Both the position numbers and the translations under genes were made by a program. Positions 10,745 through 54,936 of a stretch of DNA of 64,000 nt are shown here, one piece after another. The stretch is from Candidatus Doudnabacteria bacterium RIFCSPHIGHO2_02_FULL_42_25 (GTDB taxonomy: Bacteria; Patescibacteriota; Doudnabacteria; UBA920; O2-02-FULL-48-8). The notes under the pieces were generated by a model. That model ran no database searches, was not told the DNA's origin, and was given only the letters and a program-made list of their open reading frames with translations. The stretch covers positions 64,679-128,678 of the forward strand of contig MFEQ01000004.1 of the NCBI GenBank assembly GCA_001777665.1. The letters are read 5' to 3'. How positions within the stretch are numbered: the first letter of the stretch is position 1; every line of letters starts with the position of its first letter.

Positions 10745-11610
10745 GAAATAGTTCCAATTGCTATCAATTTCAAAGTTATTATTTCAGAAGAAATTTTTTC
10801 TTTCAAAACTTTCGGGAAATATAGCGAAAAAAAGCTTGTTAGTATCAACAAAAATACAAATTGTAAACCTTGCAATGCATTCACGACACTTACACTGCCC
10901 AATGATACTGCGTAATTTTGCAAAAAACCGCCAACAGTTCCAGTTGCCCGAGACGAATAATATAAAGCCACGTTTTTTACTCCAGCTTCTTTCGGGGCGC
11001 TAAAAATCGCCGACCGGTTTTTGGCTGACATCAAAATAAATGGGATCGGGAGTAGAAACCCGAGCCTGGTCCAGATCATACCTGAAATAAAGTTACTGTG
11101 ATCAAAAATATACTTAGTCAGTACCGAGGCGGTAGCGAAAAAGAAAGCCGCTGAAATCGCATTGAACAATGCTTTCAATGTCCAAACTCCGTGTTCTTTT
11201 TTTAAAGAGATCATTACTGCCCCCGCAACCAGGAATATAAATCCTATAGTTTGAAAAGTACTTAGACGTTCATTGAGCATAAAAAAGGCCATTCCAAAAG
11301 AAAATAAAGGCACAAATCCTCCTAAAATCGGCACAACCCTGGAAACCGAAGTTAAACTAATCGCCGCATATGTATGATATATAGCCCCGATAAATGCGGC
11401 CCCGGCAATAAGCGCAATAATGAATCCTTGAAGATTTAACATCTGTGCCCCAAACGGGAGAAGTAACAAGGAAAACGGCCCGGTGATGGCAGTGTAGAAT
11501 GCATAGGCAATTGGCGCCTTCACAACTTTTGAAACTAAAAATTTATCGGCGATCCCTGTGAAGGCCAGAAGAAAATACGCACCAGCTGCAATCAGAATCC
11601 AACTAACCAA
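10717..11610 (-). CDS. EamA/DMT-superfamily transporter
   Basis: 10-TM duplicated EamA-like topology, 297 aa. Confidence 0.55.
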   Translation of the reverse strand: MVSWILIAAGAYFLLAFTGIADKFLVSKVVKAPIAYAFYTAITGPFSLLLLPFGAQMLNLQGFIIALIAGAAFIGAIYHTYAAISLTSVSRVVPILGGFVPLFSFGMAFFMLNERLSTFQTIGFIFLVAGAVMISLKKEHGVWTLKALFNAISAAFFFATASVLTKYIFDHSNFISGMIWTRLGFLLPIPFILMSAKNRSAIFSAPKEAGVKNVALYYSSRATGTVGGFLQNYAVSLGSVSVVNALQGLQFVFLLILTSFFSLYFPKVLKEKISSEIITLKLIAIGTISCGLYLLFV

Positions 11611-12847
11611 TTTGCACCTCCTTCAAGACATCCGCGCTTTTTCTAATTTTTCGCGTTTGCGTCGCATAATCAATTTCCACTAATCCAAATCTCGGGCCAT
11701 ATCCCTCGGTCCACTCATAATTATCAGTCAGCGCCCAGTAACAATACCCTCGGACATCGGCTCCATCAGCGATGGCGTTTGCCACAGCTTGTAAACTATC
11801 TCGAATAAATTTTGGCCTTCGACTATCCACAGCATCTGCAATCCCGTTTTCTGTGACGTAAATTGGTTTTTTATACCACTTGAGATCCTTCAATAAGCGA
11901 TGTAATCCTTCCGGATATAAGACCCATCCCATATCCGATCTTTTATTCTGGTCAGTCAGCTTCATCTGTCCTTTATTAAAATTTTTATTCATTTCTTCGT
12001 AGCCCCGGCGCCAGCTCAATCTAACTTTGTTGTGAAAGTAATAATTAACCCCGATAAAATCCAATTGTTTCTGAATTTTCTCCAAGACATAATGATTGCT
12101 AATACTGTCAGCAAAATACGACAAAATTTTATCCAAAATATTATTTTTTCTATATGGTTGGTAGAATGAACTATTTTTAGCAATCCCAATTTTTGCTTTG
12201 GGTATAGTTCGTTTGATAGCTTTATATGCTGACTTATGTGCTGCAATTAAGTTTCTGATCACAATCCAAGTTTGGATTAAATTTTTTTTAAATGGCGGAT
12301 GCGATCCTTTTTGATGCGATAATCCGGCGTAGATTTCAGGTTCATTTAATGTAATCCAAAGATCGATGTCTTTTCCTAGATTCTGCGCCACAAACCAAGA
12401 ATAACGAGCAAAAGCTTCGACTCCAACATTTGTTTCAAACCCGCCTTTCGCAGCCAGCCACTGCGGCAAGGTCCAGTGCCAGAGAGTGACCATCCGAGTT
12501 AATCCATGATCTTTCATGGATTTTAAAACTTTTTTGTAATGCTCGATAGCGGCTGAATCCCACCGACCTTCTTCTGGTTCTATTCTCGCCCATTCAATCG
12601 AGATCCGCATGGCGTTCAAACCAATCTGTTCGGCTATGCCAAAATCTTCATCATATCTGTGGTAATGATCAGTAGCGATACCAGATTTAGGAACCTGTCC
12701 CAGTTGTTCCTCATGCCACCAATCCGAATTGATGTTGTTACCTTCCACCTGGTGTGCCGACAAGGCTGCTCCCAGCAAAAACCCTGTGGGGAAATGAATC
12801 TTTGTCTGCACTTTTTCCTTGGTTTTGATTTCAACTAATAACGCCAT
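11603..12847 (-). CDS. glycoside hydrolase family 1 beta-glucosidase
   Basis: GH1 N-terminal signature FLLGAALSAHQVEGNN, TLNEP acid/base, YVTENG nucleophile motif. Confidence 0.85.
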   Translation of the reverse strand: MALLVEIKTKEKVQTKIHFPTGFLLGAALSAHQVEGNNINSDWWHEEQLGQVPKSGIATDHYHRYDEDFGIAEQIGLNAMRISIEWARIEPEEGRWDSAAIEHYKKVLKSMKDHGLTRMVTLWHWTLPQWLAAKGGFETNVGVEAFARYSWFVAQNLGKDIDLWITLNEPEIYAGLSHQKGSHPPFKKNLIQTWIVIRNLIAAHKSAYKAIKRTIPKAKIGIAKNSSFYQPYRKNNILDKILSYFADSISNHYVLEKIQKQLDFIGVNYYFHNKVRLSWRRGYEEMNKNFNKGQMKLTDQNKRSDMGWVLYPEGLHRLLKDLKWYKKPIYVTENGIADAVDSRRPKFIRDSLQAVANAIADGADVRGYCYWALTDNYEWTEGYGPRFGLVEIDYATQTRKIRKSADVLKEVQIG

Positions 12848-12941: not shown

Positions 12942-13919
12942 ATGAGAAGATATCTTGCTATAACCTTGGTTTTACTGGGTGTTTTCGTGTTCGTTCCACA
13001 GGCAGAAGCCCAAGGCTTGGTCTTAAGCCAATATTCTGTAAATGTGAATATGGGGCAGTCGCAAACGATAACAGTGACCACACCAGCTGGCCAAATTCCA
13101 AATTTAATCTCTCTGACCAATGGTACAGTGGCTTATGCTACCGTTAATAGCTATCAAATTACGATTTATGGACTCAACAACGGTAGTACGCAGATGACTT
13201 TTTGTACTTATGATAATTCTTGTGCTTCAGTAAGCGTTACAGTTGGTGGAGGTAATACAAATACTTATGGCCAGATTACATTTAGCCAAAATAATCCAAT
13301 CCTGACGGTGGGTCAATCGACGACTGTGAATATTTTTTCCAACATTAGCAATCCCAGTTACTACATCCAAAATAACACCAACTCGGGAATTGTATCCGCT
13401 TCACTCAATGGCTCTACACTATTCATCACAGCACTCAATACAGGTAGCACAAACGTAGTGATCTGTTCTAATAACATTAGCAGATGTGAAAGTGTATTCG
13501 TCATGGTCAGGACTTCGGGAAGTATTGCAGGGGCTTTAGTTTATAACAACGGCACACTGATCAATGACTACGGGACTATCTACATTACTTACAAGAATTC
13601 TAAAAGCGGCTTTACCTCGGCTCAAGCATTCACAAGCCTTGGCTACAAATGGGCAAATATCATTTCAGGCTCTACTGGCAATATTCCACATTCCGGTTAC
13701 AATATTTCTTCTGCTTCTGTAGCGCATCCTTGGGGATCCTGGATTAATAATGCCGGAACGATCTATTTCGTTCATGATTCTGGATTGATCCCAATCCCGA
13801 GCATGGGTATTTTCACCAGTAACGGTGGCGTGCTCAAAAGTGTCGTCGAAGCAAACAGCTACGACTTCAACAGACCAGTCCTGGCCCAAATGGACAACAA
13901 CGACTGGCGATTGAAATAA
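12942..13919 (+). CDS. secreted protein with tandem Ig-like (Big_2-like) repeats
   Basis: Signal peptide MRRYLAITLVLLGVFVFVPQAEA, three about 85-aa repeats. Confidence 0.5.
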   Translation: MRRYLAITLVLLGVFVFVPQAEAQGLVLSQYSVNVNMGQSQTITVTTPAGQIPNLISLTNGTVAYATVNSYQITIYGLNNGSTQMTFCTYDNSCASVSVTVGGGNTNTYGQITFSQNNPILTVGQSTTVNIFSNISNPSYYIQNNTNSGIVSASLNGSTLFITALNTGSTNVVICSNNISRCESVFVMVRTSGSIAGALVYNNGTLINDYGTIYITYKNSKSGFTSAQAFTSLGYKWANIISGSTGNIPHSGYNISSASVAHPWGSWINNAGTIYFVHDSGLIPIPSMGIFTSNGGVLKSVVEANSYDFNRPVLAQMDNNDWRLK

Positions 13920-14015
13920 ACTAAAATAAAAAGAACCGCTAGTTTTACCCAGCGGCGTGAATGTATGGTCGGCGCATACTGATTGTTTGCGCCGACCATT
14001 TCGTGAGGTCCTGTG

Positions 14016-14570
14016 CTACAGCAGGATATGGCAGGCGTCGACTTTGACCGACGACTCCGTGATCTCCTTCACCAGGAACAGGCCGTACTTGCCGGATTCC
14101 GTTGTCACGGCAAGGATCGTTCCCGGCGTCAGCGTCACGATCTGGTCGTTTCTCGAGATCGCGACACGAGCAACGCGTGCCAGCGCTGACCCATCCTTGA
14201 GCTCGCGGAGCTGTTGGAAGGTTTGCTCGGAAATACCCGCCGACGAAATCCATGTCTGGTTGAGCGCCCCGGCGACGACGCGGTCGTCCAGCAACTGGAG
14301 AGAAAGCAGCGCCTTGGGCGAGCAGACGCGCACGCCGTTGCCGAACACGAACGTCAGGTCAATCTCGTTGGCGTTCTGCTCCGCATCGTTGATCGGCCGG
14401 CTCTTGTTAGCCTTGCATTTCATCAGGTAGCACAAGGGCCTTTCACCGGTGAACTCGGCGCTGTAACGGTAAAACACCCCTCGCTCCGACGGAATCACCG
14501 GCTCTGACACCGGATTGGATAGATCTTGCGTTGACTGGTCTCTTGGCTCGACTTGCACGATACACCCTCC
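14016..14570 (-). CDS. hypothetical protein encoded in a GC-rich island
   Basis: GTG start near 14568 with AAGGAGGGTG SD; local GC about 55-58% against AT-rich surroundings; no family recognised. Confidence 0.4.
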   Translation of the reverse strand, partial: GGCIVQVEPRDQSTQDLSNPVSEPVIPSERGVFYRYSAEFTGERPLCYLMKCKANKSRPINDAEQNANEIDLTFVFGNGVRVCSPKALLSLQLLDDRVVAGALNQTWISSAGISEQTFQQLRELKDGSALARVARVAISRNDQIVTLTPGTILAVTTESGKYGLFLVKEITESSVKVDACHILL

Positions 14571-14691
14571 TTTGGGCTTCGCTGATTTACTGCGGTTAAA
14601 CTGAAAACTAGGGACACACTGAAGTGCCCCTAGTTTACCAAGTATCGGTAGGGCTTGCAACTAGCATATTTTAAACAATTTCGAATCCTAT

Positions 14692-14818: not shown

Positions 14819-14838
14819 CCTGCCTGCCGGCAGGCAGG
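14819..14838. repeat. perfect 20-bp palindrome CCTGCCTGCCGGCAGGCAGG (copy 1)
   Basis: Identical palindrome at 29607-29626 and 32015-32034; variant at 35660-35679. Confidence 0.9.
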
Positions 14839-16392: not shown

Positions 16393-16608
16393 GTCCTAAC
16401 CATTAGACGATAGGGCCTTGTTTAAACATAATTATAGTTTAATTGTTTTTAAAAATAAAGTCTCAAAGTTGACTCTATGTGTCGTCATCGACTACAGTAT
16501 ATGTAATTACAATGCTTGGTTTTACAGTGTAAAACTGATCCCTTCAGCCGGAAACTGCAGGATTGGGCGGCCGGAAACCGACACTAATCAAGCGTGTAAG
16601 GAGGGTTT

Positions 16609-17193
16609 ATGTTTTTCGGAAACAGCGGTCAGATTATCAGCATGTCTCATCACCTAACGCTTCCAGCGCAGTTCCGCCCTCAAAGACGTGAAGTGTTCTT
16701 CTGGTGGAGAATGCGCGTTCTCCTCCTATGGGGGATCATTGCTTTGAGTCTCGCAGGAATCTGGTGGTTCGGCCTAACAGGGCTGGAACCTGCCTTCGTA
16801 TTCACTGCAGCTTTTATGTATTCGTTGATCGATTGGCGGATATCAAAAGTTGTGGTTCTTCAACAGGCTGATCATCGTCTGGAACGATATAACCGGATGC
16901 TGAAATTGCTGGGTAACTGGAGTCCCGCTGGCTATGTCGACGCGAGGCAGACTGTAGACTATCCGACTGATCCCTGCAAATCAGCTGAATCCCTACTTTA
17001 CGAACTTGCTGCTGTGCGTCGGAATCTGGAAAAGGAGTGGGTCCAAACACCGTACGAAGAAAGAACGGAAGCTCACGACCACAATCTCTGGAGGTCACGA
17101 GAACGACTCAAAGAAGCGTACGACCTATTCCTCGAGTTCGGGCTCATTAAACCGACCGGTTACCAGAAATACTTCGATAAACCAGCGGCTTAG
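16609..17193 (+). CDS. hypothetical membrane protein in a GC-rich island
   Basis: TAAGGAGGG SD, GC about 50%, two TM helices; no family recognised. Confidence 0.4.
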   Translation: MFFGNSGQIISMSHHLTLPAQFRPQRREVFFWWRMRVLLLWGIIALSLAGIWWFGLTGLEPAFVFTAAFMYSLIDWRISKVVVLQQADHRLERYNRMLKLLGNWSPAGYVDARQTVDYPTDPCKSAESLLYELAAVRRNLEKEWVQTPYEERTEAHDHNLWRSRERLKEAYDLFLEFGLIKPTGYQKYFDKPAA

Positions 17194-17240
17194 TCACTAG
17201 CCGCTGTACCCGCCGACCGGTTCTCGGCGATTTTTTTAAA

Positions 17241-21217: not shown

Positions 21218-21550
21218 TCATTTCAAAGCCACGTCTGAATCCTTAAGATAAGTGACATTACTTGCCGGAACAAAATTCAGGAGCTGCGCATCAGATTTGA
21301 TGCGATTGATAGATTGTAAATCGGAAACTTGTAATTGCAAGGCTTTTTGCTCTTTTTGTAAGTTGGTCAATTGTTGGTCCAATTTCCGGATCTCATAACC
21401 TTTAGTGCTCAACGCATTCACACTGTACAAATATACGAAACCGATTAAAAAAATAGCCGCGATAGTACTCAAATTTAAAATATAGGTCGAAACAAAAGAT
21501 CTAGATTTCTTTTTGCTAAAAACCGGAATCGCTAACGATAAATCACGCAT
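21218..21550 (-). CDS. ftsL: cell division protein FtsL-like
   Basis: Small bitopic protein with coiled-coil between rsmH and ftsI. Confidence 0.6.
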   Translation of the reverse strand: MRDLSLAIPVFSKKKSRSFVSTYILNLSTIAAIFLIGFVYLYSVNALSTKGYEIRKLDQQLTNLQKEQKALQLQVSDLQSINRIKSDAQLLNFVPASNVTYLKDSDVALK

Positions 21551-23811: not shown

Positions 23812-24477
23812 TTATTTATAAATTAGCCTGGCTAATGGTTTACGTTGTTTGGTTTTATCTATCACTATTAGCGGATTGTTCTCGAGAATGTTTTTCACAA
23901 ACCGATCATTCAAAATCTTTCGGTATTCAAACTCTTGAATCGAAAAAATAGTGTAACTAATTTCTTGCTCGGCAAACTTCTCAGCGAGAGTGATAAAAGT
24001 ATTCAATCGTTTCGTCCCGATTTTACCGACAATCAAAATATCGGTTTCCAGTCTCGGCTTACCGACAAAGACTCCGGTTAAGGCAATCAGCTTCGCGCTT
24101 GTCAGTTTCGATGCAGCTTTGGCTAGATTGTCAGTCGGGATCTGTCTGACCTTTCGCAGCAGCGTGACTAATTCCGGATAGAGAGTAAAATGCTTGTTCA
24201 TCTGGTAGTATCGAACTTTATTTTTTGCAGTCATGTTTATGAACTCAATTTTATCAAGTTCACGGAGAGTCTGCTTTAGAATTTTAGAAGGAGCATTTGA
24301 ATTGACCCGAAGTTCGGTAAATGAAAAACTTCGCACCGGGTGTGCCAGAAATAAATTAATGACGTTGGTTTTGAGCCTGGATGATAATAGTTGGCTTAAC
24401 ATGAACCAAATATAGCATAAAATGATTATATTTGCTATACTAAACAACGTTATGGCCCGACTAGAAACACAAATCAA
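23812..24477 (-). CDS. hypothetical protein (possible winged-helix N-terminus)
   Basis: About 200 aa, no motif recognised. Confidence 0.35.
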   Translation of the reverse strand: MICVSSRAITLFSIANIIILCYIWFMLSQLLSSRLKTNVINLFLAHPVRSFSFTELRVNSNAPSKILKQTLRELDKIEFINMTAKNKVRYYQMNKHFTLYPELVTLLRKVRQIPTDNLAKAASKLTSAKLIALTGVFVGKPRLETDILIVGKIGTKRLNTFITLAEKFAEQEISYTIFSIQEFEYRKILNDRFVKNILENNPLIVIDKTKQRKPLARLIYK

Positions 24478-26347
24478 TCAAATTTATCTGATCAACCCCG
24501 AGTCGAAAAAGAACTCGTTAGTCCTCTACGAAGAACAACTTAATAATTCTCTACAGCTCTTTATCGTCGCTGAACTCTGGAACATGACACGCAAAACAGA
24601 GAGCAATGATTTAAAAAAAATCCTGGAAATTATTCTTGGTTCGTTTAAAGAAAACAAAAAGTTACCGGCAGAAACTTTATTCGAAACTTCACTCTCGCAA
24701 ATCAATCAGAATTTAGCCGACCTCGCTCACGAAGGGCGTAAATCTTGGGTCGGCAAATTTTCGTGTGTGATTTGCGCTCATGGCGGCGACAATAACATCT
24801 ATCTGGCCAACAACGGCCAAACCGCGGCGTGGTTAAAACGAAAATCGGAAATGATGGAGATCTTACCCGCAGAAAAGCGTGGAACTCACCCACTCAAAAC
24901 TTTCGTGAATTTTACACAGGGCAAACTCACTGACAAAGATAGTTTAATCCTGACCACTTCCAATATTTTCAATTACATTTCGTTTGGACTGTTTACAAAA
25001 ATCTTAGATCAAAAACCTTTAGACGAAGCCGGTCAGGAAATCACAAAAATTTTACAGGATGCCAAAGCTCCTGACATGGCTTTTTGCAGCTTTATGCTGC
25101 ACTTTGCAAAAGCTATGGAGATCTCACCGCTCTCTACGCCTGCGAAAGATATCTATGCCCCTCTGCCTGAAAACGAGGTAATAGAGGATAAAAAACCTAA
25201 ATTTAAATTAAAACTACCAGCTTTTTCTCTTCCGACTTTTTCTATTCGAAAACCAAATTTTGAATGGTTGCAAAAAATTAAAGGTTTTGGATATTTTAAA
25301 AACTTAAGTAAACCTGGAAAGTTTTTTGTTATTTGCTTCGGAATTTTTTTATTGCTGTTTTTGATTAACCTCAGCATCTACGCCAGTAAAATCCAAGACA
25401 AAAAAACCCAAGTCCAAATCACTCAACTTGTTGAAAAAATTAATCAGGATGTTTCCGCAGCTCAATCCGCTTTGATCTATAAAGATGAAAACCAAGCCAT
25501 CACTTATCTCAATCAAGCGATTGAGGATTACAACCAACTCCTGGCTTTAGATCCAATCAAAGCTCAAGAATTAGATCCAAAAATCGAGCAAGTCAAAACC
25601 GTCATCAATAAAATTAACATCATTGAGAACCCGACAGTTTTTTTGGATTTGAAACACAGTCCTCTCTTTATGTCCAAAACGCCGATTGGATTTTTGTTTG
25701 GCAATCAGGATTCCAATTCGCTTTCACGCTTTGATGAGACCCTTACTGACTATTTTCTCCTCAACAGTCTGACTGATCCGATTACTGCTATTGATCACAC
25801 TCAAACCACGGGCGTGATTGTTTTGGCTGGAAGTAAAATTTATCGGATAGATCCGATTCTCAAACAATTTGAACCAATTGTCAGTGTGGAAAATGGCGAT
25901 CTCACTACGATGCTGGTCGGGAACAGTGCTATCTACACCCTGGACAAAGCCAACGACCAGCTACTAAAAATTCTTTATACCAAGAGCTATCGCAAACAAA
26001 TCAGTGTCTCGGGTAACGTCCGCGATGCCCGCGATTTCGGGATTGATAAAGACATATATATTCTCTATGCAGATAAAATTACTAAATACGTTTCAGGTCA
26101 GCTTCAAGCTTTCCCACTTCCAAACATGTCCGATCCTCTAACTAACGGTGATAAAATTCAAGTGGCATCTAGTCTTTATATTTTGGAAGCAAATAAAAAA
26201 CGCGTACTAATTTTAAACAAGAATGGGACTTTAATAAATCAAATCTATTTCCCAACGACAAATGCGCCCACTGATTTCTATGTCGACGAAGCCTCGAGAA
26301 GTCTCTACCTCCTTGATGGAAATAAACTTTTCAAAGTGACAATCTAG
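24422..26347 (+). CDS. large membrane protein: cytoplasmic PP2C-like region, one TM, extracytoplasmic beta-rich domain
   Basis: 641 aa; LANNGQTAAWL resembles the PP2C VANVGDSRA motif (tentative); TM near residue 300. Confidence 0.4.
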   Translation: MIIFAILNNVMARLETQINQIYLINPESKKNSLVLYEEQLNNSLQLFIVAELWNMTRKTESNDLKKILEIILGSFKENKKLPAETLFETSLSQINQNLADLAHEGRKSWVGKFSCVICAHGGDNNIYLANNGQTAAWLKRKSEMMEILPAEKRGTHPLKTFVNFTQGKLTDKDSLILTTSNIFNYISFGLFTKILDQKPLDEAGQEITKILQDAKAPDMAFCSFMLHFAKAMEISPLSTPAKDIYAPLPENEVIEDKKPKFKLKLPAFSLPTFSIRKPNFEWLQKIKGFGYFKNLSKPGKFFVICFGIFLLLFLINLSIYASKIQDKKTQVQITQLVEKINQDVSAAQSALIYKDENQAITYLNQAIEDYNQLLALDPIKAQELDPKIEQVKTVINKINIIENPTVFLDLKHSPLFMSKTPIGFLFGNQDSNSLSRFDETLTDYFLLNSLTDPITAIDHTQTTGVIVLAGSKIYRIDPILKQFEPIVSVENGDLTTMLVGNSAIYTLDKANDQLLKILYTKSYRKQISVSGNVRDARDFGIDKDIYILYADKITKYVSGQLQAFPLPNMSDPLTNGDKIQVASSLYILEANKKRVLILNKNGTLINQIYFPTTNAPTDFYVDEASRSLYLLDGNKLFKVTI

Positions 26348-26421
26348 CAGTTACTCTCAAGCACAGAAATGTAGCGTGCCCATTTATGGGCTCGAGCTGA
26401 TAAATCAGCGCGCTACAAAAT

Positions 26422-26484
26422 CTACCCCGCCTAACCTCCAGCCCCCGGCGGCCGATGAGGGATGGAACATCTGTTCCAGGGGAG
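26422..26484. repeat. family-1-type end (CTACCCCGCCTAACCTCC...GGGGAGG) with expanded loop
   Basis: Shares CTACCCC(A/G)CCTAACCTCC with 34212-34229. Confidence 0.5.
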
Positions 26485-26553
26485 GAATTTTATAACCCAA
26501 ATAAAAAAGGCGGGTCCGGTGCAGAACCTGCCTGAAGCAAACCACAACGGCTA

Positions 26554-26835
26554 TTACGCCGTTTTTAGTTCAGGGTAAGCCCGAAGTCGGTCGCAGAGAG
26601 CCTGGAACTTATCCCGATCTACCGGAAGTTCCGGGTTCGGAGTGCCAACCGGCTCAACGTCGTTAACGACCCGACGGTACCAGGACAGGAAATCTCGAAT
26701 GATTGAGGTTTCCTTTGTATGACGGCTTGCGACGGGATAGGCCGTCATAAGCGCTTCACGGAGCGCGTAGCAATGCTTCAATGTCGGCTCCTCGATGTTG
26801 ACGACAAGCATTTCCTGCAATTCCTGTATGCTCAC
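26554..26835 (-). CDS. hypothetical small protein in a GC-rich island
   Basis: GTG start with GGGAGGAGGA SD; GC-rich; no family. Confidence 0.4.
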   Translation of the reverse strand: MSIQELQEMLVVNIEEPTLKHCYALREALMTAYPVASRHTKETSIIRDFLSWYRRVVNDVEPVGTPNPELPVDRDKFQALCDRLRAYPELKTA

Positions 26836-26890
26836 GAAAATCCTCCTCCCAGAGACGAGTTATTTTAACCTTTTATTAAAAACTGATCAA

Positions 26891-28582
26891 CTATTTAGGC
26901 TTAGTGGATTCCAAAGCCGACCGTCTGGATTCTAATTTTTGAAGATCTGTTCTCATTTTCTGAAGCTCTGTCTGGTTCTTGTTTAGAATGCTACGTTGAA
27001 TTTCCAATCTGTCATCTGCCCGGTAGGAATCACGCATGAGATTACTTCCTAAACCAAGTTTAATTCCTTCCTGTTTTTCTTTTAACGTCGCTAGTACTTG
27101 CTGCTCTTGCGGCAATTCTCGCCCGATGTTTTCAATTTTTTTAGTCAATATCTCTTGTTTTATCTTATCTTTTACCCCGCCGAAAAAACCTTTAGGTAGA
27201 TCCCGCAGTGTTATTTGAGTTTCAGATAATTCTTTTTGAAGTCGGACAATTTTTTCACCTTGCACTGTCACTGCACGACCTGCTTTGTCGTAGTCTAGAT
27301 TCTTTTGCAATATAACAACTTGTTCCTGAGTGCTGACTATCTCCCTTTCTATTTCATCTATTCTTACCACTAAGCCTTCAATTTTCTTCTGGATGTCCTT
27401 CAACTCTCTTTGACGATTAAACTCCCTATCTTCAACCAGAGCATCTTCTTTAATTCTTCCTACGGTTTCTGGATTAAATTTGAACCCTAGCGAGGTTTTC
27501 AACTCTTGCATCGGCATATTGGTATCTTTAATCGCCGCTTCCAATTTTGCTTTTTGTTCATCGGATAACTCCCAAGAATAAGGTAAATGAGGCATTCCCG
27601 CAGCACTAACGTCTTTTGACTCCCATTTCTCAACTCCTCCCCAACCTACTGCACCATTCCAAACTTGAACCTTAACTTGGTCTTTACCTCCTCCAATTAT
27701 AAGATTCAAGCTGCTATTTGCAGCTTTCACAGCTTCTTGTTCATGGTTATCTCCGGGTTGACTGTGGTTGGACGCAAAAGTTTCTTGAATTTTCTTTAAA
27801 ATACCTTCTTTGATTCGCTGTAAAAGTTCGGGATTAGATACGAGTTTCGATGCTGCTTCAGTCGAACCGAACTCTCTAAAATTTAAATCAAGATCATATT
27901 CAAAATCTCTTTTGTCAGACCATTCATTTCGATCTCTTCGACTTCTTTGAGTTCCAGTAATAATTTGAGAATAAATTCTTTCTACGAGTTTATTAATGTC
28001 AAACTGCATCTCAACTTCTTTTGCTTGAGCAGCAATTTCTCTTCGCTTAATCACATACTCTTGAAGAGCCGGAAAAATTTCTTCTTGTCGACGAACTTCA
28101 GGACTCAAGCCCATTATTTTTTCGGCTTCTGCTGTGGTTTGGTCTATCTTTTGTGTTTTTGATGCTACAAGTTCATTCGCTTCTTGGATTGCTTCTCTAG
28201 TTTGTGCAATCTTTTCGTCTATTTGTCTATCATCAACTCCAGCTTGTGTTTGCACTTGACGATACAAAGATTTTACCTCATCAGGAGTCTGCTCATCTGC
28301 TATCGCAGCATCAGCTTCCTTTTTACTTTCGAACACCTGTGTCTTTTGATTATTAAGCGCTCTTATATGTTGCCATTTTAGGTTACTCGCCGTATTGGTA
28401 TTAGATATATCCGAGTTAAGCGCTACCTGTTCTTCACGGTCAGCGTAAAGCTTATCCACTTGTGAAGTAACAGCGGCCTGTTTATCATCCGCGGCTTTTT
28501 GTTCTCGCTCTTGTTGGATAGAAGCCGCTTTATCGCGAGCTTGAGCTAAAAGTTCTTCCATGTTTGGTTGTGATTCGCTCAT
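26891..28582 (-). CDS. large coiled-coil protein, unknown function
   Basis: 563 aa, highly charged E/K/Q-rich heptad-like sequence, no TM. Confidence 0.5.
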   Translation of the reverse strand: MSESQPNMEELLAQARDKAASIQQEREQKAADDKQAAVTSQVDKLYADREEQVALNSDISNTNTASNLKWQHIRALNNQKTQVFESKKEADAAIADEQTPDEVKSLYRQVQTQAGVDDRQIDEKIAQTREAIQEANELVASKTQKIDQTTAEAEKIMGLSPEVRRQEEIFPALQEYVIKRREIAAQAKEVEMQFDINKLVERIYSQIITGTQRSRRDRNEWSDKRDFEYDLDLNFREFGSTEAASKLVSNPELLQRIKEGILKKIQETFASNHSQPGDNHEQEAVKAANSSLNLIIGGGKDQVKVQVWNGAVGWGGVEKWESKDVSAAGMPHLPYSWELSDEQKAKLEAAIKDTNMPMQELKTSLGFKFNPETVGRIKEDALVEDREFNRQRELKDIQKKIEGLVVRIDEIEREIVSTQEQVVILQKNLDYDKAGRAVTVQGEKIVRLQKELSETQITLRDLPKGFFGGVKDKIKQEILTKKIENIGRELPQEQQVLATLKEKQEGIKLGLGSNLMRDSYRADDRLEIQRSILNKNQTELQKMRTDLQKLESRRSALESTKPK

Positions 28583-28591
28583 AGATATTTA

Positions 28592-29173
28592 TTAATAATA
28601 GCCTTGGGAACTGCAAGTTCCCACGTATTGATTAACTTCTCCATTAAAAATCGCCAAACAGTAGGATTGGCCGGTTACGCCGTCTATGATTGTGCGCCAA
28701 GCTCCAGTCGCACTACCAGCTACCACAGGTGTTTCAATGGTTTTCACTACTTCTCTGTAAGGAATGAGGTTATATAGTGGCTCTTCCGTCATGAAATTAG
28801 GCACAGTTTCTGCTGATGGGAGTGGCCCGTGAGCCAAATTCGAATCGGATTGATCAAAAACGTCGGCAAATATCTGGTAAACAGACCCCCAAACAAAATA
28901 GATATCAGCATCCGCTTCCGAGTCCTCTAGAAACGCAATGGTGGCATCAGCTGATTGAGTATAAAAATTTTGGACTGTATCGTATATAAAAAATACTTCT
29001 TCAAACCAGGCTCGATCTCCGATTGTTTGTTGCCAACCGATATCGAGTCGCTGAACCATATCCTGCTGAACTGATGCAACTTCTGGATTTGAAAGTGGCA
29101 CAAACAGAAAAAACGCTGTCGAAACAACGATCGCCGCCAAACCATAATAAATTGGTTTTGCTTGCGCGTACAT
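28592..29173 (-). CDS. membrane-anchored protein, paralog family member 1
   Basis: N-terminal TM; shares D.V...FY.(Q/E)SA motif with next two genes. Confidence 0.45.
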   Translation of the reverse strand: MYAQAKPIYYGLAAIVVSTAFFLFVPLSNPEVASVQQDMVQRLDIGWQQTIGDRAWFEEVFFIYDTVQNFYTQSADATIAFLEDSEADADIYFVWGSVYQIFADVFDQSDSNLAHGPLPSAETVPNFMTEEPLYNLIPYREVVKTIETPVVAGSATGAWRTIIDGVTGQSYCLAIFNGEVNQYVGTCSSQGYY

Positions 29174-29185
29174 TTTTGTTTTTGT

Positions 29186-29593
29186 TTAAAACGTCGAAGC
29201 TCTAGCGAATGAAGACAAATCCAAAAGCGTAGTTAATTCTTCTGCTGCGCTTTCGTAAAAGCTATTCGTGTATTCAGTCAGCTGCAGAATTTGATCGAAA
29301 GGATTTTCTGGGAGTGATAACAGCTCTGTCATCGCCGTGGCTGATTCCTGATAAAAAGTATCGATTGTCTTTATCGCATCAACAACTGGCTGCATGACGA
29401 CGATTGTATCAGTGACTGCTTCAGAAATAGCTGAACTCATGTCCAGCATCGACAGCCCGCTTTGCCAATCTGCAATCTCTGCACTTCCCATCAAAAATCC
29501 TTCGAGCAGCAAAACGACTGCCAAGATGATCAGGAGGTATTGTGGCTCGTATTGTTTTGGTTTTTTTGATTTTGATTTTGATTTTTTTGTCAT
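29186..29593 (-). CDS. membrane-anchored protein, paralog family member 2
   Basis: K/S-rich N-terminus, TM, VVDAIKTIDTFYQESA motif. Confidence 0.45.
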   Translation of the reverse strand: MTKKSKSKSKKPKQYEPQYLLIILAVVLLLEGFLMGSAEIADWQSGLSMLDMSSAISEAVTDTIVVMQPVVDAIKTIDTFYQESATAMTELLSLPENPFDQILQLTEYTNSFYESAAEELTTLLDLSSFARASTF

Positions 29594-29606
29594 ATTTTTT
29601 GTTCTC

Positions 29607-29626
29607 CCTGCCTGCCGGCAGGCAGG
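29607..29626. repeat. perfect 20-bp palindrome CCTGCCTGCCGGCAGGCAGG (copy 2), intercistronic
   Basis: Abuts stop codon of upstream gene, 13 nt before next ATG. Confidence 0.9.
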
Positions 29627-30169
29627 TTAGTACGCCTCGACCTTGGCGAAATTATTCAAAAAATTAATATTTGGAGTTTCAAATTTATAAGGCATCTCCA
29701 ACTCCAATTCATAAGTTGGTTCGGTATCTATAGAACCAATCTCTATTATTGCTCCCAAAACCTTTCCTTGTGTATCGTATGAAATCTGTTGTTGCCCCTC
29801 ATAACCCGATCTCACCTGGTCAGTTAAATGATTAATCGCGAGTGAGTAAGCTTCTATTGTTGGTTCGAAATCCTCGAATGGAATTGTTGCAACTTCAGTG
29901 AAGGCCAGATAGAATTGTTCATAAAAATCATTTTGCGCATCCCAAACGAAGGTAACCGTATCGACAACTCCCTGGGCTTGCTGATTCATATCAAGAATCG
30001 TAACTGCCTGCGCTACATCAGACTGCATTTGAGGAGTGAGGCCGGTGAAAAAAACAATTCCAACCACTACCACACCGACAAATCCCCAGGCAACTAATGA
30101 AGTCTCAAACCAATTTAAATTTTGATAATCTGTTTTCATAATATGCTTTTTGTTTTTGAAGATAATCAA
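29627..30169 (-). CDS. membrane-anchored protein, paralog family member 3
   Basis: TM, VVDTVTFVWDAQNDFYEQF motif. Confidence 0.45.
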   Translation of the reverse strand: MIIFKNKKHIMKTDYQNLNWFETSLVAWGFVGVVVVGIVFFTGLTPQMQSDVAQAVTILDMNQQAQGVVDTVTFVWDAQNDFYEQFYLAFTEVATIPFEDFEPTIEAYSLAINHLTDQVRSGYEGQQQISYDTQGKVLGAIIEIGSIDTEPTYELELEMPYKFETPNINFLNNFAKVEAY

Positions 30170-30326
30170 AAAGATCGGACTTGGTGATTACCCAATCCCG
30201 TCCAATTTTACGCGCTCTGATTTTACCTTTACGCGCTAACAAATTTAAATAGTCCGCGCTGTAAGGACTTAAGCTCGATGCGTCCTTCAAGCTTAAAAGC
30301 TCAAGGTCCGATGCTTGGCTGTTCAT
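30105..30326 (-). CDS. HTH_17/excisionase(Xis)-like DNA-binding protein
   Basis: YSADYLNLLARKGKIRARKIGRDWVITKSDLFDYL matches MerR-like/Xis HTH pattern. Confidence 0.5.
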   Translation of the reverse strand: MNSQASDLELLSLKDASSLSPYSADYLNLLARKGKIRARKIGRDWVITKSDLFDYLQKQKAYYENRLSKFKLV

Positions 30327-30469
30327 TTATTTAATTTTCTTTTTGTTTTAGACCCTTTTTGTTTCGATCAGGATCGGCTAGCCGATACTATATCTACTTG
30401 TATTATAGCAAAAAATCGCTCTCTTGTCAACAATTCAGGCTAGTAATAAGTAAGGAGTAATTAGTAAAT

Positions 30470-30500
30470 AGAAAACTGCGGGGTTGGCCGCAGTTTCTTA
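30470..30500. terminator. rplL terminator hairpin AAAACTGCGG-GGTTGG-CCGCAGTTT
   Basis: Stem-loop with flanking A/T runs; near-identical hairpin at 33151-33168. Confidence 0.65.
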
Positions 30501-30521: not shown

Positions 30522-30896
30522 TTACTTGAGCGTGACTTTCGCGCCAGCTTCTTCGAGTTTTTTCTTTAATTCTTCAGCTTCGGCTTTTGCGATATTTTCT
30601 TTAATCGCTTTAGGAGCAGCATCAACTAAGTCTTTCGCTTCTTTCAAACCCTTGCCAGTAGCTTCGCGTACGACTTTGATGACGTTGATCTTGTTGGCCC
30701 CGGCATCGGTAAGCTCAACTGTGAATTCAGTCTTTTCTTCTACAGCAGCAGCTCCACCTGCAGCCGGGCCTGCGGCCATCATCATCGGAGCCGCAGCAGA
30801 AACACCAAACTTTTCTTCCAAAATTTTCACCAATTCAGAAAGCTCGAGGGCCGTTAACTTTTCAATCTCTGAAACGATATTATCAAAATTTGCCAT
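30522..30896 (-). CDS. rplL: 50S ribosomal protein L7/L12
   Basis: Classic L12 N-terminal dimerisation and C-terminal domain sequence. Confidence 0.9.
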
Positions 30897-30910
30897 ATGT
30901 GTAATCCTTT

Positions 30911-31435
30911 CTAATTCGACCTTTTGTCCTTAATTGCGTTAAGTACGTTAAGAAGATTTCGAGTATTCCCGAAAAGTACAGTGACTAATCCCCTAGCCGG
31001 ACCCGCGATAACAGAAACTAATTGGCCTAAGAGTTGTTGTTTGGTTGGAAGTGTTGCAAGTCTGCTGACAACTGTTGCGTCAACTAATTCTGAATTGAAA
31101 ATTCCACCATCGAGAATCAACTGCGGATTTTCTTTTGTCATACCTTTGAGAACTCTTGCTGGAGTTGTTTCCTCTTCTTCTGAAACCGCAATCGCGACTG
31201 GTCCTGTATATTTCATTCCGTCAGTTTTAATTCCAAGTGCTTCCATCGCTTTCTTGAGTAGAGTAACTTTTACAACTTGGTACTGCACATTTTCTTTACG
31301 GAGATTTCTTCGTACGAGGTTCATTTGCTTCACAGTCATGCCACGGTATTCCGTGAATACAACACCTCGAGCTTTTTTCAAAAGCTCTGTGAGTGAAGCA
31401 AGTATTGATTCTTTCTCTTTCCTGGTTATAGCCAT
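30911..31435 (-). CDS. rplJ: 50S ribosomal protein L10
   Basis: L10 N-terminal pattern, precedes rplL. Confidence 0.9.
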
Positions 31436-31524: not shown

Positions 31525-31729
31525 CGTTAATTATATAAAATAAAAACTGTCAGATTCAAAGACAGTGATTGCTTGCCGATTTATCGGCTCTCATCTGCTT
31601 AGCGAATTAAGGCATATAGCCAGCTAAGGTCTTTGAATTAAGTTCTCACATAGTATAAATGATTTTCGGCATCAGGTCAAGAGCGCAACCTCGATAAAAA
31701 ATCGGGTCCCATATAGGAACCCGGCGGGT

Positions 31730-31936
31730 CTAGTACCAAGCAGCTCTTCGCTGAAGTGAACCGTAATTGATACGATCCAGCTCCGCGTCAGAGAGTCGCA
31801 GCGCTGGGCCGTGCTGAGCGTCTTTGAGATCGACTTTCTTGTTTTTGATCTCTTTTCGTCGCGCCCGTTCAAGAAGACGCTTGTGTCTTGCTCGCCCCCG
31901 GACTCGTTTCCTCCGTATTCGCCATTGTATACTCAT
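31730..31936 (-). CDS. small basic protein (68 aa) in a GC-rich patch
   Basis: R/K-rich, GC about 52%, own terminator 31690-31728; no family. Confidence 0.4.
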   Translation of the reverse strand: MSIQWRIRRKRVRGRARHKRLLERARRKEIKNKKVDLKDAQHGPALRLSDAELDRINYGSLQRRAAWY

Positions 31937-32014
31937 CTTCGCACCCCTGTGGATAACAGCTTAACATAAAAACCCCAGCTTTCGCCAGAGTCCCTTTTTA
32001 CTTATTACTTTTTA

Positions 32015-32034
32015 CCTGCCTGCCGGCAGGCAGG
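32015..32034. repeat. perfect 20-bp palindrome CCTGCCTGCCGGCAGGCAGG (copy 3)
   Basis: 7 nt after mltG stop; flanked by TTACTTATTAC motifs. Confidence 0.9.
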
Positions 32035-32041
32035 CTTATTA

Positions 32042-33130
32042 CTATCTCAAGTATTTCGCCCTATTCTCCCCATGCTCTTCCAGAGTCTTGGCAAAATATG
32101 CTGTTCCATCAGGTGAATTCAAGAAAAATAAATAATCAGAGTTCGCGGGATAAATTGCTGCTTTGATCGAATCAATTCCTGGATTGCCTATCGGTCCTGG
32201 TGGTAATCCACGATTAGCATAAGTGTTGTAGGGAGATTTAATTTTCGTATCTTCGATGGTTACAGACCGATCGGATTTCCCTGTCACATAATTTATCGTT
32301 GCATCTGATTCTAACGCCATACCAATTTCTAGTCGATTATAAAACACTGATGCGACCAGTTCTCTTTCGTTCTGCATAATTTCCAAATCTTCATCAGTAA
32401 GATTTTCTTTATTCCTTCCGACTTCCTTCTCTATGATAGAAGCTAAAATCAATATTTGTCCGAAATCATAATTTGTTTTCTCCGCATCTTCCACCATTTG
32501 ATCTGTAACCTTACTTTCAAAATTATTTAACATTTTACTAATCAAATCTTCTAGATGATTTTCTTTACTCAAGGTGTAAGTGTCCGGAAATAAAAATCCT
32601 TCGTAGTTAAATTTGTCACCCAAAATTTTAAATTCAAAATCAAAGTTGCCAGCCAAGGCATTATTAAATTCGGTTTCAGAACTGATGATATTTCTGTTAA
32701 CCAAATATTTTCCAATTTGTTTATTACTCCAGCCTTCGATCATGGTCACGTTCCGATTCTCACTCACAACTTTTCCGTGCGTCAGGATGTCGACAATTTC
32801 TGGAATTGCCATGTTGCTGTTTAACACATATTCGCCTGCCTGAATTTTTCCTCCAGCATTGTGAAGCTTAGTATAAATCAAAAAAATATATTTATTGCCT
32901 ATAACTTTTTCTTCCCATAGCAGCTGCCCGGTTTGTTTGGTCGAAAATCCTTTTTCTACAGTGATGTTTATTTCATGACTTTCGTCAGTAGCAGCGGCAT
33001 TAACTTTAGTTAGATAGTAAGTAACCATCACTAACCCTACTACAACAATCAATGCCAACAGCAGTAAAAGGCTTTTGCGCAGCCCTCGCTTTGGATCAAT
33101 TATTTGATATTCGTTCGGATTCATTTGCAT
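32042..33130 (-). CDS. mltG: endolytic murein transglycosylase MltG (YceG family)
   Basis: N-terminal TM, YceG-like domain, GLPPGPIGNPG motif. Confidence 0.8.
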   Translation of the reverse strand: MQMNPNEYQIIDPKRGLRKSLLLLLALIVVVGLVMVTYYLTKVNAAATDESHEINITVEKGFSTKQTGQLLWEEKVIGNKYIFLIYTKLHNAGGKIQAGEYVLNSNMAIPEIVDILTHGKVVSENRNVTMIEGWSNKQIGKYLVNRNIISSETEFNNALAGNFDFEFKILGDKFNYEGFLFPDTYTLSKENHLEDLISKMLNNFESKVTDQMVEDAEKTNYDFGQILILASIIEKEVGRNKENLTDEDLEIMQNERELVASVFYNRLEIGMALESDATINYVTGKSDRSVTIEDTKIKSPYNTYANRGLPPGPIGNPGIDSIKAAIYPANSDYLFFLNSPDGTAYFAKTLEEHGENRAKYLR

Positions 33131-35346: not shown

Positions 35347-35631
35347 TTAGAGGATTGCGTCTTTAGCAGCCTTGGCTACTCTGAACTTTACTACAGTCTT
35401 AGCAGGGATTTTGATTTGTTCCCCGGTAGCTGGGTTGCGGCCCATGCGGGCATCGCGGTGCTTCTTTAGAAGCTTACCCAACCCTGGCAGGGTGAATTCA
35501 CCACTATTCTTAGCTTCTGCATACGCTAGATTAGCGACAGCATCTAAGAATTCTGCCACTTCTTTGCGGGTTTTGCCGGTTTTCTCGGCTAGGGCGTTGA
35601 GCACCTCTGACTTGGTCATTCCTTTGGCCAT
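35347..35631 (-). CDS. hup: DNA-binding protein HU
   Basis: GFGKF-like arm ...RMGRNPATGEQIKIPAK. Confidence 0.85.
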   Translation of the reverse strand: MAKGMTKSEVLNALAEKTGKTRKEVAEFLDAVANLAYAEAKNSGEFTLPGLGKLLKKHRDARMGRNPATGEQIKIPAKTVVKFRVAKAAKDAIL

Positions 35632-35659
35632 GAACGTACCTTTCTTAATAAATTATTAA

Positions 35660-35679
35660 CCTGCCTACCGTCAGGCAGG
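35660..35679. repeat. 20-bp palindrome variant CCTGCCTACCGTCAGGCAGG (copy 4)
   Basis: In hup 5' region, next to a GC-rich island. Confidence 0.8.
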
Positions 35680-35769
35680 CAATCTGAAAACCAGTATAGC
35701 AAATCCTTAACAAATACGCTAGTTGCGGTCAAGGAATAAAAAAAGACCGCGGGTTTTAGTGACCGACGG

Positions 35770-35994
35770 TCAGGTCTGGACAATGTCGCTGGCAGCAGCC
35801 TTGGCCTGTTGTTCGGCGTGCTTCCGAGCGTTCCTGCGTACGCCATTCTGCGCCCAATTGTGCAAAATGCGTTCGGCGAAGGAAAGTTTTCTGTATGGAT
35901 TGTGGCGAAGTTCAAAAAACCACAGCCCAGCGCACGCGAGACTTCCGCCGACGACGATTATCTTCAGCCACTGTTGCCATGTCAAGTCAGCCAT
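35770..35994 (-). CDS. small membrane protein, GC-rich island
   Basis: AGGAGGTAATCCCG-ATG SD; one TM. Confidence 0.4.
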   Translation of the reverse strand: MADLTWQQWLKIIVVGGSLACAGLWFFELRHNPYRKLSFAERILHNWAQNGVRRNARKHAEQQAKAAASDIVQT

Positions 35995-36006
35995 CGGGAT
36001 TACCTC

Positions 36007-36147
36007 CTAGACTGGAAGTTTGAGGTTTTCCAGAATGTTCTCGCCGTCTGGAACCTTGGCGAGTCGTTCATAGCAGTACACGAGGGCAAAAACGCCAAAG
36101 CAGACAGTGCCCACAGCCACAACGACACCTACAACAACAAGTGTGTG
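36007..36147 (-). CDS. small hydrophobic protein, GC-rich island
   Basis: Likely start MHTLVVVGVV at 36147 with GAAGGGGG SD; single TM. Confidence 0.3.
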   Translation of the reverse strand, partial: HTLVVVGVVVAVGTVCFGVFALVYCYERLAKVPDGENILENLKLPV

Positions 36148-36154
36148 CATGCCC

Positions 36155-36454
36155 CTAGCCCCCTTCGTAGTAGACGCAAGGTAAATCGGTAAATGACGCG
36201 CGCCCTGTCCTGAAGTACTGGAATTCACGGTAGGACTCGAGTCGGCATTCGGGAAGCAATCGCGCCGGAGAACGATGAATCGCGCTTATGACCTCGTCTT
36301 CGAGATCCATGAGAAAAACTACAAGCCCCATGCATTCAGCGCCAATCGTATCGATGATCGTGACCTGATCCGCACCTATTTGCGTCAGTTCGTTGAGAAG
36401 TCCCGCTTTCGCCAGCGGGATCGAAATCGCCAGCTTGAAGTGCGTGACTTCCAT
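36155..36454 (-). CDS. small protein with P-II-like/ferredoxin-like fold pattern, GC-rich island
   Basis: AGAGGG SD; beta-alpha-beta pattern MEVTHFKLAISIPLAKAGLLNEL; family uncertain. Confidence 0.35.
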   Translation of the reverse strand: MEVTHFKLAISIPLAKAGLLNELTQIGADQVTIIDTIGAECMGLVVFLMDLEDEVISAIHRSPARLLPECRLESYREFQYFRTGRASFTDLPCVYYEGG

Positions 36455-36569
36455 GTGTATACCCTCTTGAAAGTTGAATTCGATAGTAAATAGTGTAGCT
36501 CAATTCTAAGGTTTCAACAAGGACTCTTGATTATTTTGCTATTTTTTGCTATAGTAATTTGGCTTTTTG

Positions 36570-54480: not shown

Positions 54481-54936
54481 TCAGCGCGGCTTGGTCGCGA
54501 TCAACTTCGCAGGATCATGCATGCGAGTGAACGTTCCAACGAACAGTTCAGAAAGCGGTTTCCCTCTATCTACTCGTTGCATTTCTTCTTCTAGTCTTTC
54601 GTAGCCCTCCTTCATGATTGCCTCGTGAGCTGCACTGTCCTCACCATTGTGACTCTGGGCTTTCTCGATCTCTCGTTTGATCTCAAAAACAAGCTCTTGT
54701 CTCCGCACATCCATTGTCTGAATAACACGACCACCGCCCAGCTTAACTTTCGCTAACGCTAGGTAGACGGCACGAATATGCTGACCCATTGGATCAGTAG
54801 ATCTCGGGTCAAAGCGCGGTACCTGGATCAGGCCCGATAACCCGTCACTCATTTCCTGCGACGCCAAGTACCAGCCGTTGCCCTCCGCTTGTTCATACGT
54901 TAACTTGATGATCTTACGGTCACTGCTGTTAACCAA
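54481..54936 (-). CDS. hypothetical protein in a GC-rich island
   Basis: TTG start with GAGGTGA SD; GC about 52%; no family. Confidence 0.4.
   Translation of the reverse strand: MVNSSDRKIIKLTYEQAEGNGWYLASQEMSDGLSGLIQVPRFDPRSTDPMGQHIRAVYLALAKVKLGGGRVIQTMDVRRQELVFEIKREIEKAQSHNGEDSAAHEAIMKEGYERLEEEMQRVDRGKPLSELFVGTFTRMHDPAKLIATKPR

Follow-up and report, generated by a model that had tools for sequence, protein, structure and literature searches.

A Doudnabacteria operon of an HTH regulator and three remotely paralogous membrane-anchored proteins, with optional downstream genes and a plausible envelope role

Here we analyse a block of six genes from Candidatus Doudnabacteria bacterium RIFCSPHIGHO2_02_FULL_42_25 (assembly GCA_001777665.1), which lies within a 64,000-nucleotide (nt) stretch of contig MFEQ01000004.1 that we call the window and in whose positions coordinates are given unless a related locus is named. 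The block is on the minus strand directly 3′ of rplJ–rplL and encodes a helix–turn–helix (HTH) protein, three membrane proteins that we call P1, P2 and P3 (the trio), a coiled-coil protein (CC) and the product of a small open reading frame (ORF), orf93 (Table 1). Look-ups by exact sequence assign the window to Candidatus Doudnabacteria of the Rifle aquifer (GCA_001780145.1), and existing annotation lists these products as hypothetical, or just as ‘helix-turn-helix domain-containing’. A preliminary description of this DNA had proposed that the six genes form a novel envelope-associated or surface-structure module; what persists of that proposal is that only the HTH protein belongs to a recognisable family and that an envelope role is plausible, and what does not persist is its composition, as CC is not an obligatory partner and orf93 appears to stand apart.

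Table 1 Features of the operon, its flanks and a related pilin gene, in positions of the window
Feature	Position	Strand	Properties	Basis
HTH	30326..30105	minus	73 aa	ORF call
P1	30139..29627	minus	170 aa	ORF call
P2	29593..29186	minus	135 aa	ORF call
P3	29173..28592	minus	193 aa	ORF call
CC (coiled-coil protein)	28582..26891	minus	563 aa	ORF call
orf93	26835..26554	minus	93 aa, GTG start	ORF call
rplL intrinsic terminator	30472..30497	minus	10-bp stem, then T-run	
Operon promoter	30402..30430	minus	TTGACA-17 nt-TATAAT, TGC extended −10; consensus match 12/12	
Leader motif AGATATAGTATCGGCTAGCCGAT, includes 14-bp palindrome ATCGGCTAGCCGAT	30373..30395	minus	begins ~6 nt past −10 box; candidate HTH_17 operator	
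Perfect 20-bp palindrome CCTGCCTGCCGGCAGGCAGG	29607..29626		in P1–P2 spacer	
Promoter-like site before orf93	26862..26890	minus	TTGATC-17 nt-TAAAAT; consensus match 9/12	
Terminator-like hairpin and T-run 3′ of orf93	26503..26528	minus		
GC-rich element AAAATTCCTCCCCT...GGAGGTTAGGCGGGG past orf93 terminator	26423..26490	minus	both ends conserved in L028, with a 9-bp hairpin there	
VirB2-like pilin, not part of the operon	58438..58836	minus	132 aa, secreted	Pfam PF18895, E = 1.5e-11

Six co-directional genes with overlapping or abutting ends had been described, and the ORF calls return exactly this, with distances of −35 (an overlap), 33, 12, 9 and 55 nt along the order HTH, P1, P2, P3, CC and orf93. 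The intrinsic terminator of rplL forms the boundary between the ribosomal-protein genes and the HTH–trio operon, and related loci have an equivalent hairpin and T-run 3′ of rplL too. A signal scan found no promoter match inside the operon comparable to the complete one in front of it, and the hairpin 3′ of orf93 marks the probable end of transcription. Co-directional genes, short gaps, a promoter on the 5′ side and a terminator on the 3′ side are all present, as in a single transcription unit, with the caveat of an extra promoter-like site at orf93. Judged by these signals, the earlier claim of one operon is supported from HTH through CC and becomes doubtful at orf93, which has a promoter-like site, a ribosome-binding site and a terminator of its own.

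From look-ups of proteins and scans of collections we obtained 17 distinct P3-bearing lineages, and we mapped their loci by tblastn and ORF calls (lineages and loci are cited below by handles such as L028). P1, P2 and P3 are adjacent, in the same order and directly after rplL in all 12 lineages with a contig that reaches far enough. The HTH gene lies 5′ of the trio in 9 of the 11 lineages where this position is visible, being absent in L023 and L025, and the locus occupies the same place, between rplL and a cell-division cluster, in every lineage seen. The 10 P3 homologues are all unnamed or labelled hypothetical, and both organisms named among them are Doudnabacteria. Judged by these sequences, the HTH gene and the trio are a conserved core specific to Doudnabacteria.

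The first gene had been read as an HTH_17- or excisionase-like DNA-binding protein that overlaps its neighbour, which is borne out in both respects: the product matches Pfam PF12728 (HTH_17; MerR/excisionase-type DNA-binding) at 35.3 bits against a gathering score of 27 (E = 1.4e-8, profile positions 1–50 of 51), its L029 orthologue reaches 41.3 bits, and its reading frame runs 35 nt into that of P1. It is the only one of the six genes with a match to a known family. The protein also matches PHROG excisionase families (phrog_1840, E = 6.9e-7) and scores 19.4 bits with TIGR01764 (‘excise’), under the cut-off of 28.8 bits. It has no recombinase partner, with no integrase called within 10 kb, and in the window as in all syntenic loci it is surrounded by rplJ/rplL, yceG and the division cluster. 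The protein probably acts as a transcription regulator, not as an excisionase.

The operon promoter is retained in all 10 aligned related loci, including two without an HTH gene, and shows one or two base changes in L020 and L026. Immediately 3′ of it, a leader motif with the consensus CAGATAYAGTATNGGYTAGCCNAT is found in all eight aligned loci that bear the HTH gene, the window copy (30395..30373) containing the perfect palindrome ATCGGCTAGCCGAT. The motif is absent from both HTH-less loci (L023 and L025), and it occurs once in the window for a chance expectation of 0. We infer that it is the operator of the HTH protein, which would make the protein a self-repressor, as the motif starts at about the transcription start.

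Each protein of the trio has one strongly hydrophobic 19-residue segment near its N terminus and is acidic beyond this anchor (net charge −19 in P1, −9 in P2 and −17 in P3). We place the start of P1 at the ATG at 30139, not at the TTG at 30169, because the N terminus MKTDYQN is conserved among orthologues; its transmembrane helix spans approximately residues 16–34, and an FYxQFY motif accompanies the acidic region. P2 has a lysine-rich N-terminal tail, one transmembrane helix and a helical motif, FYxxA(S/A), that occurs twice, and P3 combines its transmembrane helix with three helices, an invariant NFMTEEPLYNxxPY, a small C-terminal beta-sheet and two invariant cysteines. P2 and P3 fit an orientation with the N terminus inside the cell.

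Of the earlier statement that these are three paralogues with one transmembrane helix each, the single hydrophobic segments stand, and the paralogy stands once profiles are compared. Pairwise BLAST among the three is weak (P1–P2, E = 0.001; P1–P3, E = 0.076; P2–P3, not significant), whereas hhalign comparison of profiles with 10–12 orthologues each relates P1 to P2 (88.7% probability, E = 2.6e-6) and P2 to P3 (95.9%, E = 5.8e-9), P1 and P3 being related through P2 only. Common to all three is a module of a transmembrane helix and a helical hairpin with FYxQ(S/A)A, a motif that P2 has twice, and a C-terminal VAGAS-type motif is present in all three families. At the level of sequence profiles, we regard P1, P2 and P3 as demonstrated remote paralogues of ancient duplication.

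Beyond HTH_17, family searches returned nothing that would name the system. As the preliminary description had anticipated, the six proteins match no pilus, secretion, toxin–antitoxin or defence family in Pfam, PHROGs, NCBIfam and PADLOC, and searches of PDB sequences with the CC, P3, P2 and P1 profiles give nothing meaningful. P1, P2 and P3 have no match to Pfam DivIC, FtsL or FtsB, and none of the six genes matches the VirB2-like pilin profiles PF18895 and PF04956. The trio was also considered as a set of type IV pilins and rejected on a prepilin test (a PF07963 match, glycine before the cleavage site and glutamate at +5): the three proteins have no match to N_methyl (PF07963) and their N termini are not of the prepilin type, lacking the G-F-T-L-x-E pattern, whereas a true pilin in L007, used as a positive control, matches PF07963 at E = 6.7e-9.

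What follows P3 varies from lineage to lineage. This downstream slot is visible in 14 lineages, and because L029 and the window carry two kinds of gene the counts total 16. A protein with a PF18895 domain (VirB2-like, T4SS_pilin) is found in five (L009, L010, L013, L024 and L029): those of L009, L010 and L013 are secreted proteins of 556–786 aa with a C-terminal pilin hairpin, that of L024 is a 135-aa pilin, and the 638-aa protein of L029 comes right after CC, overlapping the CC stop codon by 4 nt. CC itself is present in 4/14 (the window, L006, L015 and L029–L031) and absent from the nearest relative, L028; an orf93 homologue occurs in two (the window and L028) and other small secreted proteins in two (L021 and L022), and the slot is empty in three (L011, L014 and L020). 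CC is an optional, not an obligatory, member of the operon. Co-conservation across related genomes, which the proposed six-gene module presupposed, holds for the trio and for most HTH genes and does not extend to CC or to orf93, which is shared with L028 only. In L020 (2613..4433), an additional 606-aa secreted protein with InlB B-repeat/Flg_new and Ig-like domains lies between rplL and HTH, a further sign of surface-protein genes gathering around the operon.

CC follows P3 closely (9 nt in the window, 8 nt in L015), with no terminator between them. Lineages with CC are scattered across both main branches of a neighbour-joining P3 tree, and sister pairs differ in their slots: the window, with CC, pairs with L028, without it, and L029, with CC and a VirB2-like gene, pairs with L014, which has neither. 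CC has diverged about as much as P3 (33–36% compared to 36–38% identity). As this scatter and this P3-like divergence fit vertical inheritance of CC with losses, it is simplest to suppose that both CC and the VirB2-anchored protein are ancestral accessory genes that were lost repeatedly.

CC had been introduced as a long, highly charged coiled coil without a transmembrane segment, and the protein indeed has 33% charged residues, a net charge of −10 and no hydrophobic or transmembrane segment; as it also lacks a signal peptide, it is probably cytoplasmic. The accompanying image of a filament is not what the structural model suggests. An AlphaFold2 model based on 15 sequences (pLDDT 83.7, pTM 0.50) has helices at residues 8–95, 101–157, 161–193, 196–213, 371–460, 473–514 and 520–558, with helices of around 90 residues that are followed, after short breaks, by shorter ones, and a small conserved alpha/beta hub at roughly 228–364. 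From this helix pattern, together with hairpin-type matches in fold searches, we predict two folded-back helical arms around the hub, not a single filament-forming rod. Conserved motifs comprise ELLAQARxK and KIYADREEQ at the N terminus, TxKEAAExLGY and GxVKDKxxQ, and, from the hub into the next long helix, QKxxIxxAIxNPxxPxxxLKxxLGxKYxPExLxxIQEDALKEN; the hub motifs match nothing known.

The CC family is small: 1.84 billion representative proteins, searched in full by HMM, yielded 14 members. Another search of a large database, based on a 15-sequence CC profile, brought back only three known proteins, coiled-coil words having saturated the candidates, and a comparison with phage families gave no match. 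Fold searches return generic coiled coils only, with nothing below E = 0.03 in Foldseek, whose weak matches include helical regions of TcA-type toxin subunits. Four unrelated contexts have CC and lack the trio (L007, L016, L017 and L018). They share no common neighbour: the gene next to CC encodes a type IV pilin in L007, a membrane protein in L016 and a 2098-aa SpvB/RHS protein in L017. This last locus (L017 1297..9519), which is outside Doudnabacteria, has a 595-aa CC homologue directly upstream of the SpvB/RHS (YD-shell) toxin-like protein, followed by two small ORFs. A further protein, P0017 (133 aa), equals residues 1–115 of the window CC save for one substitution and then diverges, and reflects either a frameshifted variant in the population or an artefact of assembly.

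The 93-aa ORF at the end of the block is GC-rich, as first noted, with 53.5% GC (GC1/GC2/GC3 of 0.63/0.38/0.60) compared to 41% in the window. We take orf93 to be a real gene because of this three-base GC periodicity and its strong ribosome-binding site, GGGAGGAGGA, of a kind that is rare in window genes. A non-coding RNA was considered and rejected given the periodicity, the ribosome-binding site and a homologue at the protein level; a permissive Rfam scan of the GC-rich region 26250..26950 returned nothing credible. Its sole detectable homologue (38% identity over 39 aa, E = 5e-8) is in L028, whose P3 is 64% identical to that of the window and where it lies directly after P3; orf93 has no match among protein families and viral sequences. 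Between the window and L028 the flanks are more conserved than the ORF, namely the promoter-like site, the leader, the terminator GACCSGCCTTTTTTATTTG and a CCTCCCC...GGAGG hairpin. The promoter-like site and a GTCTCT..GGAGGAG ribosome-binding leader are thus conserved where no CC gene precedes them, and the terminator sequence GACC(C/G)GCCTTTTTTATTTG is kept as well. Because of these expression signals of its own and the conserved flanks in CC-less L028, orf93 appears to be a separate, self-contained small cassette, not an integral member of the operon. The near-identical strain copies (L001–L005), with no more than 2 base differences in 6.2 kb, say nothing on selection on orf93.

Starting from the gene order, conservation, paralogy and regulatory motifs of the locus and from the VirB2-like link in its relatives, all of them observed, we tentatively favour an autoregulated, Doudnabacteria-specific cell-envelope operon with optional accessory genes, a reading that, taken as a whole, falls just short of an even chance. 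The HTH protein would repress its own promoter through the conserved palindromic site at about the transcription start, and P1, P2 and P3, with their acidic regions outside the cell, would form a mixed complex at the external side of the cell membrane. CC would serve as a cytoplasmic scaffold, and the second optional gene would encode a beta-rich secreted protein that a VirB2-like pilin hairpin anchors in the membrane. The lineage of the window would have kept CC, lost the VirB2-anchored protein and come to carry the unrelated orf93 with its own signals. The role of the operon would lie at the cell envelope or surface, possibly tied to the VirB2-like pilin systems of these bacteria; such a role is plausible because of the predicted orientation of P2 and P3, the acidic regions after the anchors, the cysteines of P3 and the VirB2-anchored neighbour in five lineages. 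By exclusion, the module would belong to no known kind of system, a conclusion that demonstrates no new mechanism.

Several points weigh against this reading. The leader motif and the HTH gene are both missing in L023 and L025, and as one deletion could account for both, their co-occurrence is not independent proof of an operator; the motif could instead work in the mRNA. The membrane orientation of P1 is ambiguous from its charge distribution, and the AlphaFold2 model of P3 is of low confidence (pLDDT 51), too poor for a fold search. CC is found without the trio in the four other contexts and the trio without CC in 10/14 lineages, and the slot also holds the unrelated secreted genes of L021 and L022, so that it may simply tolerate insertions. 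In addition, the P3 tree, built by neighbour joining from a short protein, is crude, which keeps insertion into a tolerant site alive as an alternative.

On that alternative, HTH and the trio alone are the functional unit, the slot is a tolerated insertion site after a strongly expressed operon, and CC, orf93, the VirB2-anchored genes and the other secreted genes are its passengers. We consider it somewhat unlikely. In its favour, the content of the slot varies, CC homologues elsewhere have no consistent neighbours, orf93 brings its own expression signals, and in L020 the 606-aa secreted protein is inserted upstream of HTH. It accounts less well for how CC is placed, close behind P3 or in 4-nt overlap with the VirB2-like gene and without an intervening terminator, and for its presence on both main P3 branches with a divergence like that of P3, which suggests long co-residence. 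A more ambitious version of the operon we favour would join HTH, the trio, CC and the VirB2-anchored protein into one unrecognised surface apparatus, with the trio as platform, CC as cytoplasmic scaffold and the pilin-anchored part displayed, perhaps for host-cell contact, lineages keeping different subsets; we think this unlikely.

A function as an accessory module for cell division or the cell wall, with the trio resembling FtsL/DivIC/FtsQ and CC an EzrA- or DivIVA-type scaffold, is improbable. A mraZ–rsmH–ftsL/divIC–ftsI–murE cluster of conserved order lies ~3.6 kb away, and small helical single-pass proteins with a coiled-coil protein of ~560 aa fit such an architecture, but P1, P2, P3 and CC have no Pfam match to DivIC, FtsL, FtsB, FtsQ, EzrA or DivIVA, the division cluster has a DivIC/FtsL-like gene of its own (21218..21550, E = 3.7e-5), and two conserved genes on other strands intervene between it and the operon. 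CC is moreover dispensable in most lineages, and its fold matches are generic coiled coils.

A membrane-stress system of the Psp/Lia kind, in which the small membrane proteins recruit the CC scaffold to the membrane under HTH control, strikes us as highly improbable. The gene set parallels pspABC and liaIH, and the conserved polybasic cytoplasmic tail of P2 could be set against the acidic CC, but this tail is equally conserved in lineages without CC, most of the mass of P1–P3 comes after the anchor and would be outside the cell, the proteins do not match PspA/IM30, PspB, PspC or LiaI/LiaF, and many unrelated coiled coils match CC at least as well as ESCRT-III-like proteins do. Lastly, a mobile-element or prophage remnant with HTH as a true excisionase, which the excisionase matches of HTH and the GC-rich, possibly foreign, DNA of orf93 and its downstream spacer might suggest, is already largely refuted, as there is no integrase, recombinase or attachment-site repeat, HTH stays below the TIGR01764 cut-off, CC and orf93 have no phage or viral match, HTH, P1, P2, P3 and CC have a GC content typical of the genome, and all lineages seen keep the block at its place between rplL and the division cluster.

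The 20-bp palindrome had been placed between the second and third paralogues; it lies in fact in the P1–P2 spacer and is not particular to the operon. Exact copies of CCTGCCTGCCGGCAGGCAGG are found at 14819..14838, 29607..29626 and 32015..32034, and one with 2 mismatches at 35660..35679, all intergenic and with unrelated flanks, for which reason the palindrome is a dispersed REP-like repeat. The copies at 14819, 29607 and 32015 are just downstream of minus-strand stop codons, and those at 14819, 32015 and 35660 are in or beside GC-rich islands. An operon-specific regulatory site was considered and rejected, there being three exact copies in the window with unrelated flanks. The copy at 29607 folds into an 8-bp hairpin within a structure of −16.6 kcal/mol, with no T-run after it. 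Four other lineages have a hairpin with a GGTCGA-type loop in the P1–P2 spacer (L009 7484..7521, L013 6297..6350, after L020 5423, and L026), whose stems differ in sequence and keep their pairing; five lineages have no hairpin there, and the window has the palindrome. This spacer hairpin may be a stability or attenuation element within the operon. The GC-rich islands (up to 62% GC, compared to 41% in the window) are at 13801..14650, 16501..17200, 31651..32050, 35551..36500, 54551..54950 and 62101..62550 and hold only ORFs without a family match, with an overlap of opposite-strand ORFs at 13957..14660; two of the islands, 13801..14650 and 35551..36500, gave no credible match in permissive Rfam scans.

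Some features of the surroundings deserve mention. In most bacteria, rpoB–rpoC come after rplL, whereas here rplJ–rplL (30522..31435 and downstream) are succeeded by the HTH–trio operon; none of the 10 large ORFs scanned encodes an RNA polymerase subunit, the 1193-aa ORF being dnaE. Ribosome-binding sites are scarce across the window (12/47 genes by a lax criterion), and in several genes, such as 2215..2793, 11603..12847 and 32042..33130, just 5–10 nt separate a TATAAT box from the start codon, short distances that suggest frequent leaderless mRNAs. Adjoining the operon, at all loci that extend far enough, is a pair formed by a 196-aa protein (23812..24402, minus strand), which has a match to PDC-M05A, a candidate defence model of PADLOC (E = 8.8e-20), and a divergent 641-aa membrane protein (24422..26347, plus strand) without a family match.

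The window also has a VirB2-like pilin gene away from the operon (Table 1), nested between gatA (58833..60284) and gatB (56993..58441) with 4-nt overlaps on both sides, which is an odd site for a pilin gene. Its product is very similar to the membrane anchors of the secreted proteins encoded after the trio in related lineages (E = 9.4e-49 with a local HMM built from these anchors). VirB2-like pilins occur widely across Patescibacteria, Doudnabacteria among them, according to a preprint that also refers to a pilin array as essential in one cultivated species (bioRxiv 10.1101/2025.01.22.634366).

This analysis defines the P1/P2/P3 trio and the CC family, both of them orphan protein families, and a strongly promoted, probably self-regulated operon found in Doudnabacteria only. 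It also reveals a recurrent physical link of this operon to proteins anchored by VirB2-like pilins, the class that includes the reported essential pilin array. Patescibacteria are thought to depend on other cells, and few of their surface proteins have a known role. Should the trio serve as a platform on which such surface proteins are assembled or anchored, it would add a new and testable part to their envelope; if not, a conserved cluster specific to one lineage has still been cleanly described.

Set beside known systems, the operon has partial likenesses to several. As with many small HTH_17 (PF12728) proteins, its regulator is encoded by the first gene, beside a palindromic site, but it has neither a recombinase partner nor a mobile-element context and falls below the TIGR01764 cut-off. 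CC matches generic antiparallel coiled-coil hairpins (HP0958/CT398, a soluble chemoreceptor, IpaB, LegC3, SMC arms and EnvC) over 100–220 residues at 7–15% identity, and these proteins have unrelated functions. Psp/Lia operons (PspA/LiaH with PspB/PspC/LiaI) likewise unite a regulator, small single-pass proteins and a soluble coiled coil, whereas CC, in which a central hub separates two helical regions, exceeds PspA more than twofold in size and, like the other products, has no Psp or Lia family match. With the VirB2-like pilins of Patescibacteria (PF18895), the six genes of the window share no domain, and no VirB4, VirB6 or coupling-protein gene is near the operon; the likeness lies in the relatives, in five of which the gene after the trio or CC ends in, or consists of, the two-helix pilin module, there fused behind a secreted domain of ~450–700 aa and not standing alone.

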